The position numbers and the translations under genes were made by a program. Shown one piece after another: positions 1,576-5,474 of a stretch of DNA of 5,474 bases. Source of the DNA: a virus (Duplodnaviria; Heunggongvirae; Uroviricota; Caudoviricetes); the IMG/VR virus record IMGVR_UViG_2698536677_000017; one strand, 5' to 3'. The notes beneath the pieces were generated by a model. It did no database searches and was not told the DNA's origin. It saw nothing but the letters and a program-made list of their open reading frames with translations. Each line of letters begins with the position of its first letter. Position 1 is the stretch's first letter.

Positions 1576-2538
1576 TCACCCCCTGAATCCCGGCGGTATT
1601 TCAGTGTCCGGTTCAGAAATGTGATTCACGCAACGCTGCGCAGGCGAACGCCCCAGGCGGATAACCAGTTCATCCCATTTTTCCCGGAGTTTTGCCGGAC
1701 TCATGATGTTTTTTACCCAGAACGAATCCCGCTGGAGACGCCCAAACATTTCACAAATTTGTCTGTGAGTTCTGCCATCCAGCATCCGCATTGTGCGAAC
1801 GTCATTGGCCCATGCTGTCCAGTTGGGTTCTTTCGGTCTAGTGATCTCGCCATCATAGCTGGCCGCCTGCTCGTAAAGACTCACGATTCGTCCCCAGATC
1901 CACTGTGCGCACACCAAATCTTCCTGACTTCCCCACTGGCGTTTTTTCGCACTGAACACAACCGCGTCAGGGTGTCGGGTTAAAAAATCCTGTTCAGCCG
2001 TCTGCGGGTCCGGTTGCGAAGCGTCCGGACAAGAAGATCTTTTATCTGACGGATCAGGTTTTAATACTGACGGATCGGGGTCAATCATCGCCCCCCTAAT
2101 CGGCAGTTTTTTATCAACAGTTGATCCATCAAAATTTGACGGGTCAACCGTTGAGGGGTCAATATTTGACGGGTCAACTGTTAACGGGTCATTTTTTGCC
2201 GGGCTAATTTTTCTTTTCGGTTTATATGACTCACGCGCCGCCGCCGCAGCTGCTTCGAGTTTTTCCACATTAAGCCGATAGATATTGCTTACATTACGCC
2301 CACCGACCTTACGCTCTTCCTTCGTCAGCCAGCCCTCTTTCGCCAGTTCTGCAATAGCCGATTTCACTGTGGATTCACTTCTTGCACCGATCTGACGCCG
2401 GATAGTTTCAATGGCAGGCCATGACACGCCCTCGTCATTGCTGTAGTCTGCAAGACGGGCCATAACCGCCACCCTGGATAAGATCATGCCGGTGAAGGCG
2501 CACCCTTCCCAGACAAGACCATGAAGCTTGCTGCTCAT
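1576..2538 (-). CDS. Replication initiator, lambda O-like / YdaU-like (N-terminal HTH DNA-binding domain, origin iterons inside the gene)
   Basis: Long minus-strand ORF. Start chosen as ATG (complement of 2536-2538) with a GGGGG SD-like run 4 nt upstream; an alternative GTG start lies at 2553. The N-terminus (MARLADYSNDEGVSWPAIETIRRQIGARSESTVKSAIAELAKEGWL) is HTH-like; the middle encodes DP(S/L)xxDPSTVD repeats matching the DNA iterons. Its stop is 6 nt before the DnaC-like start. Confidence 0.8.
   Translation of the reverse strand: MSSKLHGLVWEGCAFTGMILSRVAVMARLADYSNDEGVSWPAIETIRRQIGARSESTVKSAIAELAKEGWLTKEERKVGGRNVSNIYRLNVEKLEAAAAAARESYKPKRKISPAKNDPLTVDPSNIDPSTVDPSNFDGSTVDKKLPIRGAMIDPDPSVLKPDPSDKRSSCPDASQPDPQTAEQDFLTRHPDAVVFSAKKRQWGSQEDLVCAQWIWGRIVSLYEQAASYDGEITRPKEPNWTAWANDVRTMRMLDGRTHRQICEMFGRLQRDSFWVKNIMSPAKLREKWDELVIRLGRSPAQRCVNHISEPDTEIPPGFRG
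2047..2195. repeat. Iteron array (putative replication origin) inside the O-like gene, followed by an AT-rich tract to about 2230
   Basis: Seen in sequence: near-palindromic core TGACGG(A/G)TC(A) at 2047, 2068, 2137 and 2167, with variants TGAGGGGTC at 2152, TAACGGGTC at 2182 and TTGATCCATC near 2121. The last four copies sit at a regular 15-bp spacing. Immediately downstream is ATTTTTTGCCGGGCTAATTTTTCTTTTCGGTTTATATGA (about 2191-2230). Confidence 0.55.
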
Positions 2539-2560
2539 AAAACCCCCGAACACCGTGCTT

Positions 2561-2986
2561 TTAGTGCATCACCACAGCATTCCCTGCCGGGCCGCCGCGA
2601 TTCATCTGGTCATACAAAACAACCGCTGACGCAACAAAATCATCGACATCCTTCACCAGCCGATCCCTCCGTTCGACGATCTCACGGTAATATTCAGAAC
2701 TGTGGCTGCGCATACGGGCCACCAGCAAAGGCGGCATCGCCTTTTCGATCGCCGGTAACAGAGCCTGCATTTTTTTAACAGCATCAGGGGTGTCTTTCTC
2801 TACCCAGCGGAAAATTTTCTGGGTATTACGGGCCAGGGCTTCCGGATGGCTGTCGTCATACAGTTCCGGGAACGTCATTCCCAGCTCGAAATACGCTTTG
2901 GTAATTTTCGCAGCCGGTACTTTTTCGCCGTCCGGATGCGCCCAGACATTCATCGCCATGCGGATGTGTTCATGCTTGATTTTCAT
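2561..2986 (-). CDS. YdaT-like protein (Rac-type early gene; described either as a CII-like regulator or as a putative toxin)
   Basis: 141-aa ORF beginning MKIKHEHI..., ATG start with GGAG 7 nt upstream. Its start overlaps the stop of the upstream Cro-like gene by 4 bp (ATGA). Position (cro-like, then this gene, then O-like, then DnaC-like) matches the Rac ydaS-ydaT-ydaU-ydaV order. Family call is from memory. Confidence 0.65.
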   Translation of the reverse strand: MKIKHEHIRMAMNVWAHPDGEKVPAAKITKAYFELGMTFPELYDDSHPEALARNTQKIFRWVEKDTPDAVKKMQALLPAIEKAMPPLLVARMRSHSSEYYREIVERRDRLVKDVDDFVASAVVLYDQMNRGGPAGNAVVMH

Positions 2987-3285
2987 GAATCAACTCCATC
3001 AGATAAGCATGTACTACAATCACCTTCAGCATGAACTACATGTGTTTGCCCCAAACGAATGCCGCTCGCATACTCAGGCCAAATAAGCTCCCAATCATGG
3101 GGTCGTAGCTCCGCCCTACTTACTTGGCCTTCCGTCGCAGATTCGATCATAAGGGCGCGGGTTGGAGATATAGCTGTTCGTCCAGACGCCATTTGCGATA
3201 AGTAAGATGGCGATACACCAAGTCTGGCCGCGAATTTCTTAGCATCACCAACCCTTAATGATTTAATAAACTCTTTTAATGTCAT
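2983..3285 (-). CDS. Cro-like HTH regulator, YdaS family
   Basis: 100-aa ORF, ATG (complement of 3283-3285) with GAGGAAGG SD just upstream. The motif LGVSPSYLSQMASGRTAISPTRALMIESATEGQVSRAELRPHDW is typical of the YdaS/Cro-like HTH family. First gene transcribed leftward from the divergent operator region. Confidence 0.8.
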   Translation of the reverse strand: MTLKEFIKSLRVGDAKKFAARLGVSPSYLSQMASGRTAISPTRALMIESATEGQVSRAELRPHDWELIWPEYASGIRLGQTHVVHAEGDCSTCLSDGVDS

Positions 3286-3382
3286 ACCTTCCTCGGTTTA
3301 GTGTTTTTTTGCGAGTTTAGTGTTTAATAAACCATTAAGTCAAGTATTTGCTTGTTTAGTGATTACTAAAGATAATTACCAC
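3286..3382. promoter_or_regulatory. Divergent operator/promoter region (OR-like) between the Cro-like gene and the repressor gene
   Basis: Seen in sequence: three copies of the half-site GTTTAGT at 3296, 3315 and 3354. Two sit in palindromic contexts: AGTTTAGT-gttt-AATAAACC (3314-3333) and TTTAGT-gatt-ACTAAA (3355-3370). Candidate rightward promoter: -35 TTGCTT (3348-3353), 17-bp spacer, -10 GATAAT (3371-3376), placing the transcription start at or next to the repressor ATG (3383). Candidate leftward promoter: -35 TTGACT (complement of 3338-3343), -10 TAAACT (complement of 3314-3319), 18-bp spacer. Confidence 0.6.
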
Positions 3383-3754
3383 ATGCAAAAAAAAGAAATT
3401 CGCCGTTTACGTCTCAAGGAGTGGTTTAAAGATAAAACTCTGCCACCCAAAGAGAAGAGCTACCTATCTCAACTAATGAGTGGGAGAGCCTCGTTTGGAG
3501 AAAAGGCTGCCAGAAGAATAGAGCAAACATACGGGATGCCGGAAGGGTATCTGGATGCGGAATACGCAGAACAACCGGGGGTTTCTCCACCACATGCAGG
3601 GTTAACGTCTAATCAACTGGAATTATTGCAGATTTTTTCAGCCTTCCCTGAGGATGAGCAACGCCAGATAATCAGCGAGTTAAAGCAGAAAAAAGAATCA
3701 ATGGAAGATCTCATAGCGAGATGGATTGCGGCGCAAAAATGCCGCCGCGCCTGA
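3383..3754 (+). CDS. Prophage repressor, short HTH protein, DicA/RacR-like (no S24 peptidase domain)
   Basis: ATG at 3383 chosen over the GTG at 3320 given in the ORF track, because the upstream extension would cover the operator/promoter sequences. The N-terminal segment EKSYLSQLMSGRASFGEKAARRIEQTYGMPEGYLD is HTH-like; the C-terminal segment LTSNQLELLQIFSAFPEDEQRQI resembles the DicA C-terminal region as I recall it. No SD precedes the start and the -10 lies 7 nt upstream, so the mRNA is probably leaderless. Confidence 0.75.
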   Translation: MQKKEIRRLRLKEWFKDKTLPPKEKSYLSQLMSGRASFGEKAARRIEQTYGMPEGYLDAEYAEQPGVSPPHAGLTSNQLELLQIFSAFPEDEQRQIISELKQKKESMEDLIARWIAAQKCRRA

Positions 3755-3774
3755 GTTATAAAACCGGAGGAAAC

Positions 3775-3966
3775 ATGAATAGAGCCCTTTCACCAATGGT
3801 TTCTGAATTTGAAACCATTGAACAAGAAAACAGTTACAACGAATGGCTGCGTGCGAAAGTAGCAACGAGCCTTGCAGATCCGCGCCCAGCAATTCCCCAT
3901 GACGAAGTTGAGCGCAGAATGGCAGAACGCTTTGCTAAGATGCGTAAGGAACGGAGCAAGCAGTAA
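3775..3966 (+). CDS. Type II antitoxin, ParD/RelB-like ('stability determinant' type), partner of the downstream ParE-like toxin
   Basis: 63-aa ORF (MNRALSPMVSEFETIEQENSYNEWLRAKVATSLADPRPAIPHDEVERRMAERFAKMRKERSKQ). ATG at 3775 with GGAGG (3766-3770) 4 nt upstream; the upstream ATG at 3721 overlaps the repressor and has no SD. The stop TAA (3964-3966) is 1 nt before the toxin ATG. Small, acidic-to-basic profile and position upstream of the toxin are typical of antitoxins. Confidence 0.7.
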   Translation: MNRALSPMVSEFETIEQENSYNEWLRAKVATSLADPRPAIPHDEVERRMAERFAKMRKERSKQ

Positions 3967-3967
3967 A

Positions 3968-4246
3968 ATGTTACCCGTGTTATGGCTTGAAAGCGCAGAT
4001 ACCGACCTAGATGATATAACTAGTTATATTGCTCGTTTCGACATAGATGCGGCTGAACGCTTATGGCAGCGATTAAGGGGTTGTGTGCTGCCGTTATCCG
4101 AACATCCGTATTTATACCCACCAAGCGACAGAGTACCTGGCTTGCGTGAGATTGTAGCCCACCCTAACTATATAATTCTATACCGCGTAACAACATCAAG
4201 CGTTGAAGTAGTAAACGTGATCCACGCAAGACGCCAGTTTCCCTAA
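3968..4246 (+). CDS. Type II toxin, ParE/RelE superfamily
   Basis: 92-aa ORF (MLPVLWLESADTDLDDITSYIARFDIDAAERLWQRLRGCVLPLSEHPYLYPPSDRVPGLREIVAHPNYIILYRVTTSSVEVVNVIHARRQFP). The pattern W..A..DL..I..YI...D...A, then PG.RE......YII.YRV, then V.VV.V.H.RR at the C-terminus is characteristic of ParE/RelE toxins. ATG at 3968, 1 nt after the antitoxin stop. The ORF-track start at 3872 would overlap the antitoxin and is rejected. Confidence 0.8.
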   Translation: MLPVLWLESADTDLDDITSYIARFDIDAAERLWQRLRGCVLPLSEHPYLYPPSDRVPGLREIVAHPNYIILYRVTTSSVEVVNVIHARRQFP

Positions 4247-4316: not shown

Positions 4317-4358
4317 GGTTTAGTTTTTACTTGACTTAAGTTTAATGTTTATTAAACT
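4317..4358 (+). promoter_or_regulatory. OL-like operator plus rightward promoter candidate (PL analogue) for the ydfA-like operon
   Basis: Seen in sequence: GGTTTAGT (4317-4324) is identical to the OR copy at 3295-3302. A perfect palindrome AGTTTAAT-gttt-ATTAAACT (4339-4358) closely resembles the OR site at 3314-3333. Promoter candidate: -35 TTGACT (4331-4336), 16-bp spacer, -10 TAAACT (4353-4358), with the -10 inside the palindrome. Confidence 0.5.
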
Positions 4359-4537: not shown

Positions 4538-4690
4538 ATGGATACGCTCAATCTTGGCAACAACGAATCTCTGGTATGCGGTGTGTTCCCTAACCAGGAC
4601 GGCACCTTCACCGCGATGACGTATACCAAAAGTAAAACGTTTAAAACCGCAGCTGGTGCGCATCGCTGGTTAGCAAGAAACACTGACTGA
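4538..4690 (+). CDS. Small prophage protein, DUF1391 family (YdfA/YdaF-like)
   Basis: 50-aa ORF (MDTLNLGNNESLVCGVFPNQDGTFTAMTYTKSKTFKTAAGAHRWLARNTD). ATG at 4538 with GAGG (4529-4532) 5 nt upstream; the in-frame upstream ATGs at 4451 and 4457 lack an SD. Family recalled from the Qin/Rac small proteins ydfA and ydaF, which sit next to the repressor gene in those prophages. Confidence 0.65.
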   Translation: MDTLNLGNNESLVCGVFPNQDGTFTAMTYTKSKTFKTAAGAHRWLARNTD

Positions 4691-4701
4691 TGAGGTTGAC
4701 G

Positions 4702-5040
4702 ATGGAATTTAAAGATTTACCTCCTTCAATCCAGGAGATTGCAGCACACACACTTCGTCATCGTCTGAACGAACTTGAATTGGAATCGGTAACAAAAAAA
4801 GACACTGATAATATGGCTCGCAATGTGCGCGATGCGTTTACTGGGCTGTTTTCAGATACAGCTTTAAATATCCATGGCACAGAGGATACAGCAAAACAAT
4901 TTGCAGAAAAAGAAGTGGAAGATCCCAGTTCAAAGAGCCAGAAACAGCCAAACAACCATGAAATTAACGAACTGCTTCTGGCAACAGGCTTCATAAATAT
5001 TAACGAATATGAACGCCGTAAAAAAATGTTATCTGATTAA
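4702..5040 (+). CDS. Hypothetical acidic protein, 112 aa, no recognisable family
   Basis: ORF with ATG at 4702 preceded by GAGG (4692-4695) at a 6-nt spacing. An alternative start is the ATG at 4690, which overlaps the stop of the upstream gene as TGATG. No hydrophobic segment and no motif I recognise. Confidence 0.6.
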   Translation: MEFKDLPPSIQEIAAHTLRHRLNELELESVTKKDTDNMARNVRDAFTGLFSDTALNIHGTEDTAKQFAEKEVEDPSSKSQKQPNNHEINELLLATGFININEYERRKKMLSD

Positions 5041-5223
5041 TCCATCAAGATATCTTTTTAGCATCAGCGTTTCTACGTTATTAAAACCATCAGATTTTAA
5101 CATAGCTTCGATTCGCTGATTTAAATTGCCAACTAACTGTTGATACTGAGTAGATGGAAGCATGTGTACCAGCTCCTTGAGAACACAATAACATGCACCA
5201 AGTTTTAACTCCTGCTCTGACAT
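5029..5223 (-). CDS. Hypothetical small protein, 64 aa, convergent to the previous gene
   Basis: Minus-strand ORF (MSEQELKLGACYCVLKELVHMLPSTQYQQLVGNLNQRIEAMLKSDGFNNVETLMLKRYLDGLIR). ATG (complement of 5221-5223) with a strong GGAGGA SD 4 nt upstream. Its 3' end overlaps the 3' end of the plus-strand gene by 12 bp. The upstream in-frame ATG at 5235 in the ORF track lacks an SD. Confidence 0.6.
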   Translation of the reverse strand: MSEQELKLGACYCVLKELVHMLPSTQYQQLVGNLNQRIEAMLKSDGFNNVETLMLKRYLDGLIR

Positions 5224-5474
5224 TTTATCCTCCATTGAGGTTACTGGTTGAGAATGGAGACCTCTCGTGACAGCGTGTGGTCGAGCGCCGGACACGGATA
5301 AGAATCCGGCACTGACAGTTTACTGAAAGGATATTTCCCTGAAAAGTCAGACCATAACGCGAAAGCGTACGGCGAGGTAGCTGGTTCATAGATAGCCTGT
5401 CGTTAAATTTTCGTCGACCGTGCGCTTCCGGTTGTGGCAATCCGCGAAATGGCGCGGCGGTAAGTATGGCGGGG

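Follow-up and report, generated by a model that had tools for sequence, protein, structure and literature searches.

IraP (YaiB) is an RssB anti-adaptor of Enterobacteriaceae that sequesters RssB and shields sigma-S from ClpXP. Lambda CIII is a small helical protein of the phage pL operon that inhibits the host protease FtsH, stabilising CII and sigma-32. In pore-forming colicin systems the immunity gene is transcribed opposite to the colicin gene, and polymorphic proteins combine a constant N-terminal part and a variable C-terminal part with a cognate small partner. Reverse-oriented genes also occur in prophages, such as sieB of the Rac prophage of E. coli K-12, which is opposite in orientation to the flanking kilR and ydaF. 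Here, we describe a reverse-strand gene of 64 amino acids (aa) in a 5,474-nucleotide stretch of Caudoviricetes DNA (IMG/VR record IMGVR_UViG_2698536677_000017), the whole of which is referred to below as the window, where it runs tail to tail into a 112-aa gene of the opposite strand. The DNA of the window corresponds to the immunity and early-left part of a lambdoid prophage of the Qin/Rac type, and the class of region to which the gene belongs is the dicBF-type early-left operon of Qin/Rac-like prophages. We show that the 64-aa gene is an accessory gene, one of approximately 12 unrelated small cargos that occupy a single reverse-oriented slot behind a conserved structured leader. To the level of profile comparison its product is a remote homologue of IraP residues ~19-82. 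Reverse accessory genes in lambdoid early-left operons are already known, as are tail-to-tail antidote arrangements; the combination of a multi-cargo hairpin leader, an IraP-like cargo and a portable tail on the overlapped gene appears to be undescribed in the literature searched and in Rfam.

The gene occupies positions 5029-5223 on the minus strand, from an ATG at 5223-5221 to a TAA at 5031-5029, with a Shine-Dalgarno (SD) sequence GGAGGA at 5228-5233, 4 nt upstream of the ATG. Its 3' end shares 12 bp (5029-5040) with the convergent open reading frame (ORF) on the plus strand. An earlier note on this DNA, made from the letters alone, had the ORF coordinates, the ATG, the GGAGGA and the 12-bp overlap all correct. 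The product, annotated in RefSeq as WP_001295058.1, matches the profile of phrog_4987, a phage protein family of uncharacterised function, from end to end (residues 1-64 of 64, E 3.1e-49, 166 bits), and because this alignment is full length the start is fixed at ATG 5223 and not at GTG 5295. The 88-aa reading from GTG 5295 and a 71-aa upstream ORF were both rejected, as they lie inside the leader and their frames are not kept between lineages. Homologues of 65-67 aa show 36-45% identity, including a 67-aa Edwardsiella tarda protein (P0008; E 2.6e-11, 45% identity) and a 65-aa Salmonella protein (P0009; E 3.9e-5, 36% identity), and only a few clusters of the family came back when 1.84 billion cluster representatives were searched exhaustively with its profile. 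Comparison of the E. coli, Salmonella and Citrobacter copies gave dN/dS values of 0.22-0.31 in three species pairs. The possibility that the ORF is a chance reading frame or a decaying remnant draws on its shortness, on the many spurious ORFs of like length in the window, and on the lack of any match to the protein in a tblastn search of deposited phage genomes; a protein-pattern scan of GTDB species representatives likewise found no relative. However, the full-length phrog_4987 match, the dN/dS values, the homologues of equal length in four genera and the conservation of SD and leader effectively refute that possibility, which we consider extremely improbable. The conservation in related prophages on which the earlier note had let its proposal depend is borne out by the same match, homologues and dN/dS values, and the 64-aa ORF is, from its pattern of conservation, a real gene whose family is real but small.

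In other Qin-like prophages homology to the window ends exactly at the ATG, with right-hand homology starting at ~5216-5222. Approximately 330 nt upstream of the ATG, including GGAGGATAAAATG, are common to these prophages, and behind this common leader stand differing reverse ORFs of 61, 69 or 98 aa. Altogether, the ORFs found behind the leader form 18 clusters, or about 12 distinct families of 30-112 aa when truncated variants are left out of the count. On the other side, homology of the 112-aa ORF to the common 212-aa form in O157 stops at about window position 4909. The exchangeable cassette is therefore placed at approximately 4910-5223, composed of the variable 3' end of the partner gene and the reverse cargo, and flanked on its left side by the coding sequence of the constant N-domain and on its right side by the conserved leader. 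Similar to the reverse "morons" of lambdoid early-left operons such as sieB, the 64-aa gene lies downstream of a DUF1391/ydaF-ydfA-type gene, is reversed relative to the repressed operon and is patchy in its presence, with other cargos occupying the same slot in related prophages. Unlike the sieB-type morons, this slot has a common leader that extends up to the ATG and many interchangeable cargos, and its cargo overlaps the preceding gene and has no terminator of its own that could be detected. Convergent overlap or abutment is the rule in the slot, at 0, 4, 11, 12, 29, 33 or 71 nt.

Several of the other cargos are described here in their own right. A 94-aa protein (MAKFTVRIELRD...) at IMG/VR loci L054-L172 scores 21.2 bits against Pfam GhoS, for which the cut-off is 21; GhoS is a type V antitoxin endoribonuclease family, and this cargo is overlapped by 4 nt by its convergent partner. 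A second conserved convergent pair, found in O157:H7 (L015, 2503-3351) and in Salmonella (L016, 5688-6500), consists of a 200-212 aa protein and a 69-aa reverse gene (phrog_4274). The larger protein joins the MEFKDLP N-domain to a C-domain of ~120 aa ending ...YIYAEHGPLWIDW, the two stop codons abut, 0 nt apart, at 24 of 24 loci, and in Salmonella L016 the pair stands in tandem with an IraP-like pair. At loci L050, L053 (Edwardsiella) and L051 the leader is followed by a proline-rich ORF of 30-32 aa (MRINQFGGTERPRPDGQVPYRPTPAPKPKK); L051 is labelled Chryseobacterium, its locus is enterobacterial in appearance, and contamination or transfer could be the reason.

The convergent partner spans 4702-5040 on the plus strand (stop codon 5038-5040), encodes 112 aa and comes second in the dicBF-type early operon. 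PGAP labels it a partial pseudogene. Despite this label it is a real gene, with a dN/dS of 0.39 and a collinear 119-aa orthologue in Salmonella that is 56% identical over 112 aa. PGAP and the orthologues place its start at ATG 4702. A further ATG at 4690, which would give a 116-aa form, overlaps the stop codon TGA of the DUF1391 gene by a single base (cTGATGa, 4688-4692), an arrangement that suggests translational coupling. The N-terminal ~55-70 aa of the partner are a constant domain, matching the N-terminal half of phrog_2151, 1363 and 9419 among others, and the C-terminus is variable.

The last ~25 aa of the partner (…ELLLATGFININEY…), a tail encoded at 4960-5037 (EINELLLATGFININEYERRKKMLSD) whose final 9 nt together with the stop codon overlap the 64-aa gene, are co-inherited with the IraP-like gene. 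The tail reads …HEINELLLATGFININEYERRKKMLSD in E. coli, …HETNELLLAMGSINFSEYDRREKMLSDQPIKISF in Salmonella, …RERLLLDAGLISMAEFTSKYGSI in Edwardsiella and …RDSLRLDIGMMSMAEYTSRHGTNFTD in a second Salmonella lineage, and in these lineages three unrelated N-terminal parts carry it as an in-frame fusion: the MEFKDLP domain, a phrog_12693-type domain and an Xre-type helix-turn-helix protein. A scan for a motif built from these tails over 3.0 million six-frame residues from 173 loci gave 54 occurrences, at 54 of the 55 loci with an IraP-like gene and at none of the 118 others, although most of these loci are near-identical copies and represent only three to four independent lineages. Edwardsiella-type prophages with the GhoS-like gene as cargo have the same constant N-domain, but no tail on it. 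Between the Edwardsiella and second-Salmonella tails identity is 50% at the protein and 60% at the DNA level, and the differences by codon position number 7, 8 and 14, with third positions dominating. The similarity of the tails at L008 and L012 was reached by 0 of 5000 shuffles; the E. coli tail gives a weaker match to the Edwardsiella and second-Salmonella tails, aligned in the same register, with 40 of 5000 (window against L008) and 164 of 5000 shuffles scoring as well. The dominance of third-position changes indicates that purifying selection acts on both proteins, tail peptide included, and this points to a protein-level rather than an RNA-level link between the genes. Because the tail is co-inherited in every lineage that keeps the partner, the sequence comparison supports a functional tie between the 64-aa gene and the gene it overlaps. 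Co-inheritance and co-variation of the kind that marks a cognate two-gene module were found with three unrelated N-domains and in three to four independent lineages. The likeness to tail-to-tail toxin/immunity systems extends to the constant N-domain, the variable C-terminus, the co-varying small convergent gene and the GhoS-like cargo of the same slot. In contrast to those systems, the variable part is only ~25-40 aa, and PADLOC has no match for the 64-aa gene or its 112-aa partner.

The leader itself is structured. Its proximal ~90 nt, up to the ATG, contain three hairpins, the last of which pairs the SD; together with upstream sequence the region covers 5224-5345 (minus strand), and equivalents lie at 5919-6003 in both L008 and L012 and in L050-L053. 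Hairpin 1 (5287-5310, minus strand; GCCGGAUUCUUAUCCGUGUCCGGC), with the consensus GCCGGAUUCUUAYCCGUGUCCGGC at window 5310-5287, is near-invariant across genera, and a U.G pair within it is kept in 17 of 18 sequences, which favours the minus-strand RNA as the folded strand. In hairpin 2 (5259-5282, minus strand) the sequence varies and the pairing is kept, five of the six pairs having changed on both sides (for example CACACG/CGUGUG, CUCCAU/AUGGAG and CCCAAC/GUUGGG). In hairpin 3 (5229-5260, minus strand) an anti-SD UCUCCAUU (5260-5253) pairs with AAUGGAGG (5236-5229), a predicted pairing that places five of the six SD bases (5229-5233) inside its 3' arm. Here 99% of cells are paired, the arms are invariant, the loop is variable in sequence and length, and the GGAGGA is the same in all 18 distinct leaders. 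Tested over these 18 leaders, the structure as a whole has 94.7% of cells paired, compared with 24-42% with slid partners, and a covariation score of 0.178 compared with 0.062, a score reached by 0 of 500 shuffles in a test that is silent on hairpins 1 and 3, which never vary. In the minimum free energy fold of the single sequence the SD is also paired, within a local alternative hairpin instead of hairpin 3. The strong SD that the earlier note had reported is present as GGAGGA, but the prediction has it paired within a conserved hairpin.

Conservation of the leader reaches into the Edwardsiella and second Salmonella lineages, where protein identity falls to 36-45%. It was found in Escherichia, Salmonella, Citrobacter, Edwardsiella and Pluralibacter. 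Five GTDB species representatives contain the hairpin-1 motif (Escherichia albertii, two Edwardsiella, Pluralibacter gergoviae and a Chryseobacterium-labelled contig), as do more than 120 IMG/VR contigs among the matches listed. Rfam gave no match at gathering thresholds over the whole window and none at E <= 10 within 5150-5474. Immediately upstream, at 0-9 nt from hairpin 1, -10-like hexamers can be picked out by eye in otherwise unrelated sequences (TAAACT, TATAAC, TATAAA, TATTAT and others, in part preceded by TG), and on this ground hairpin 1 is the probable 5' end of the mRNA. In the window a candidate promoter for the reverse gene, picked out by eye at 5317-5345 (minus strand), would consist of a -35-like TTTTCA (5345-5340), a 17-nt spacer and the -10-like TAAACT (5322-5317). 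The window differs by one base from the ATCC 25922 and IMG/VR copies at position 5284, between hairpins 1 and 2 (GGCGCUCGAC here, GGCGCACGAC there). In the Qin prophage of K-12, hairpins 1 and 2 of the leader remain in the ydfC-dicF interval (L002, 3546-3700), and the SD, the ATG and the cargo ORF have been lost; if this remnant bears a promoter, it may give rise to an antisense RNA to ydfC.

Turning to the protein, the AlphaFold (AF2) model of the 64-aa product is a three-helix bundle (helices 3-20, 24-44 and 49-62; pLDDT 80), in keeping with the small, probably helical protein that the earlier note had foreseen. In the AlphaFold model of IraP the helices span 2-38, 42-58 and 67-82, and adding 18 to the family helices gives 21-38, 42-62 and 67-80, boundaries that coincide with those of IraP except for the length of helix 1; the two models therefore have the same three-helix architecture with the same loop positions. 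PF10796 (Anti-adapt_IraP) is the top Pfam family for five of six family members. Against its gathering cut-off of 23.2 bits, three relatives reach 19.5, 20.2 and 24.5 bits, the last being the Edwardsiella protein P0008, which RefSeq already names IraP; P0009 has no hit to PF10796. With an IraP hidden Markov model (HMM) built here, all six members outscore at least 99.7% of their own shuffles (0-6 of 2000 shuffles reach the real score) and reversed member sequences score ~0. In the opposite direction, a family HMM gives six IraP orthologues 5.5-15.4 bits, scores reached by 0-12 of 1000 shuffles. Alignments in both directions are gap-free or nearly so and keep one register, family residue n corresponding to IraP n+18, over ~51-58 residues (IraP 19/20-82/83) that include the C-terminal Y-x-x-L-[LI]-[RK] and end at both C-termini.

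Other comparisons tell against a close relationship. The window protein itself scores 14.4 bits against PF10796 (E 0.062), below the cut-off; it has no match to the NCBIfam IraP equivalog NF007598 (curated cut-off 78 bits), to which the Citrobacter relative scores 26.8 bits with a doubtful N-terminal extension included; BLASTP detected no similarity of K-12 IraP to the 64-aa or the Citrobacter protein; and hhalign gave P 7e-4 and a probability of only 27%. Fold searches with the 64-aa protein returned generic helical bundles only, with the IraP structure 8gkv not among the top PDB matches, and searches of PDB sequences by phmmer and with the family profile found designed proteins and dockerins (E >= 0.04) and no IraP (8gkv). 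Full-text literature searches for WP_001295058, 8GKV and phage-encoded IraP found no relevant mention. The family is 64-67 aa in length compared with ~86 aa for IraP, IraP residues 1-18 have no counterpart, and the in-frame sequence upstream of the family ORFs is non-coding leader whose frames are not kept between lineages. Taken together, the 64-aa family is probably homologous to IraP, whereas functional identity is much less likely because the missing 18 residues are part of the predicted coiled coil proposed as the contact with RssB. The product shares with IraP (PF10796, NF007598, PDB 8gkv) its small size, its all-helical make-up and, after the 18-residue shift, its three helix boundaries. 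It differs in having 64 aa instead of 86, with no equivalent of the N-terminal half of IraP's long helix 1, the coiled coil with the L9 site; in lying in a prophage early operon, whereas iraP of K-12 adjoins phoA; and in standing behind a structured leader, paired with a tail-bearing convergent gene. Since the Pfam and NCBIfam thresholds, the length and N-terminal coiled coil, and the genomic context all fail, the window protein is not classifiable as IraP, and it is more aptly termed a shortened phage-borne relative of the IraP fold. What the earlier note had called a protein of unknown family can be placed in phrog_4987, distantly related to PF10796, and the suggestion of a small regulator or inhibitor in that note is compatible with the remote IraP relationship. 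Two further ideas were tried and rejected: that the partner tail replaces the missing IraP N-terminus in a "split IraP", as the scores of the tails with the IraP HMM were no higher than those of shuffled sequences, and that the tail mimics a segment of RssB, for which no similarity above shuffles was found.

We tentatively favour a reading, which we hold at somewhat less than an even chance, in which the 64-aa protein is a small binding inhibitor paired with the tail-bearing early protein. It would act stoichiometrically, by binding or sequestering as IraP does, and its most likely binding partner would be the tail of the convergent early protein. Expression of the small protein would come from its own leader and run against the repressed early operon, its translation being controlled by the hairpin that pairs the SD (hairpin 3); the tail-bearing protein would be made only on derepression of the operon. 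With one product driven by its leader and the other dependent on derepression, the pair would be under opposing control, like an antidote or immunity gene placed tail to tail with its target, and the GhoS-like cargo, a member of an antitoxin family, is consistent with cargo of an "antidote" type. Several points weigh against this reading, beside the sub-threshold scores already given. The independent lineages are few, and no sigma-70 consensus promoter above chance was found upstream of the gene in four lineages. Citrobacter has an intact small gene and only a deleted remnant of the partner, which indicates that the small protein is not strictly dependent on the partner. A single common target function is hard to picture for three unrelated N-domains, and co-inheritance of the tail could be a by-product of recombination sites.

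This last point leads to an ordinary mosaic cassette, in which the genes have no functional link, the small protein has some other host-directed role and the tail travels through breakpoints in its flanks. The variable region does lie between conserved sequences, the N-domain coding region at one end and the leader at the other, each cargo type comes with its own partner 3' end, and the Citrobacter locus, with its small gene and no partner, fits. Yet the left flanks of the Edwardsiella and second Salmonella loci are unrelated and the tail is nevertheless kept in frame; it is conserved as a peptide, judging by the amino acid and nucleotide identities and the third-position changes; the Edwardsiella-type N-domain bears it only with the IraP-like cargo; and the motif is absent from the 118 loci with other cargo. 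We regard an unlinked cassette as rather unlikely. Slightly greater weight, on the unlikely side still, goes to a true phage-borne RssB anti-adaptor that would stabilise sigma-S (RpoS) in the lysogen or during induction, the partner tail being incidental. The two-way profile homology to IraP in one register with matching helix boundaries speaks for such an activity, as do the RefSeq name of the Edwardsiella member and the fact that anti-adaptors are small and lineage-restricted. However, IraP residues 1-18 are missing, and these fall within residues 1-35, a predicted coiled coil proposed to contact RssB, where the substitution L9S lowers IraP activity (PMC4428439). The window protein is also below the Pfam and NCBIfam cut-offs, tail co-inheritance is left unexplained, and iraP is already present in all host E. 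coli. Conceptually, though with no sequence relationship claimed, such a protein would resemble lambda CIII in that a small phage protein of the early-left region would protect a host sigma factor from regulated proteolysis, CIII differing in being co-oriented with pL. Pairing with the partner and targeting of RssB are not mutually exclusive.

A primary role at the RNA level, with transcriptional interference or an RNase III-sensitive duplex coupling the reverse gene and the dicBF-type operon as the earlier note had proposed, seems to us very unlikely. The 3' overlap or abutment is systematic in the slot, and the reverse gene faces dicBp, upstream of the toxic dicF and dicB. In addition, the junction has no predicted intrinsic terminator in the lineages examined, which makes 3'-overlapping transcripts plausible. 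An intrinsic or bidirectional terminator at the overlap was considered and rejected: all that E. coli has there is a weak hairpin, AU-rich and with an A/U tract, that is not conserved in Salmonella, and the junction folding z-scores (-0.85 to -1.9) are not significant. But no promoter rises above chance, the overlap length varies from 0 to 71 nt, and both coding sequences, overlapped tail included, are under purifying selection as proteins, so that RNA effects would be an addition and not the reason for the gene. Antisense coupling of the two genes is possible, and as an added layer antisense or interference is plausible, since the sequence holds nothing that would stop either transcript before the overlap. 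A more ambitious extension of the binding-inhibitor reading is decidedly unlikely. In it, tail and IraP-like gene would work together as a "tag plus tag-binder" system borne by the phage. The tail would serve as a recognition or degradation signal that moves, by grafting, between different early proteins, and the small protein as a three-helix, anti-adaptor-like mask translated only once the conserved SD-occluding leader opens. Chromosomal IraP would have come from the phage family through domestication and addition of an N-terminal coiled coil, and the leader would be an undescribed riboregulator of about 12 unrelated prophage small proteins.

If the protein does act on RssB, the general stress response of the host could be reset by common prophages, among them those of ATCC 25922, the O104:H4 outbreak strain and an ST131 isolate, and a phage origin of IraP would be suggested. 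If it acts on the partner tail, the two genes would make a compact control module, portable from one early gene to another. Either way, a conserved structured leader with no Rfam match, its last hairpin pairing the ribosome-binding site, lies close to DicF and dicB and is a candidate translational switch open to test. The slot is a hotspot at which prophages exchange small host-directed proteins and a place to mine for new small regulators.

The final 1.1 kb of the window is 99.9% identical to prophages of E. coli ATCC 25922, and most of it is present in ~150 complete E. coli genomes. The 64-aa gene was found, as near-identical copies, in 152 of 5426 complete E. coli genomes, including O104:H4 2011C-3493 and an ST131 isolate, and the surrounding 1075-bp region has sequence matches in 4561 genomes. 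Based on the ATCC 25922 annotation and Pfam, the plus strand carries in order the repressor, a PaaA2/RelB-ParE pair, a DUF1391 gene (ydfA/ydaF-like) and the 112-aa ORF, followed by the 64-aa gene in reverse, and the minus strand carries replication genes, a YdaT-family gene and a cro-like regulator. The position of dicBp, between PaaA2-ParE and the DUF1391 gene, holds a promoter-like site (4331-4358). Directly past the window end come the small RNA (sRNA) DicF, dicB, a DUF1482 gene, an exonuclease, xis and int, and the address of the 64-aa gene in its prophage is between the DUF1391 gene and DicF/dicB. In K-12 Qin this site is occupied by ydfB and ydfC on the opposite strand.

Elsewhere in the window, the PaaA2/RelB-type antitoxin (E 1.7e-19) and ParE toxin (E 4.8e-16) at 3721-4246 (plus strand) lie between the prophage repressor and the early-operon promoter, and the pair is missing from the O104:H4 and O157 versions of the region. 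On the minus strand at 854-1569, a DnaC/IstB-like replication gene is split into two ORFs in different frames (854-1240 and 1225-1569). The ATCC 25922 record has a single 248-aa ATP-binding protein across the equivalent of 823-1569, and the window copy could be frameshifted. In Salmonella L016, a homologue of the E. coli pre-dicF spacer lies upstream of the leader and ends in a terminator (4647-4664, minus strand), and no DicF match was found in this homologous region. The same early operon of L016 contains, at 1923-3437, three tandem repeats of a unit made up of a C4 antisense RNA, the IsrK sRNA and Phage_ASH, and a single C4 antisense RNA lies downstream of the IraP-like gene of L012, at 5181-5268.

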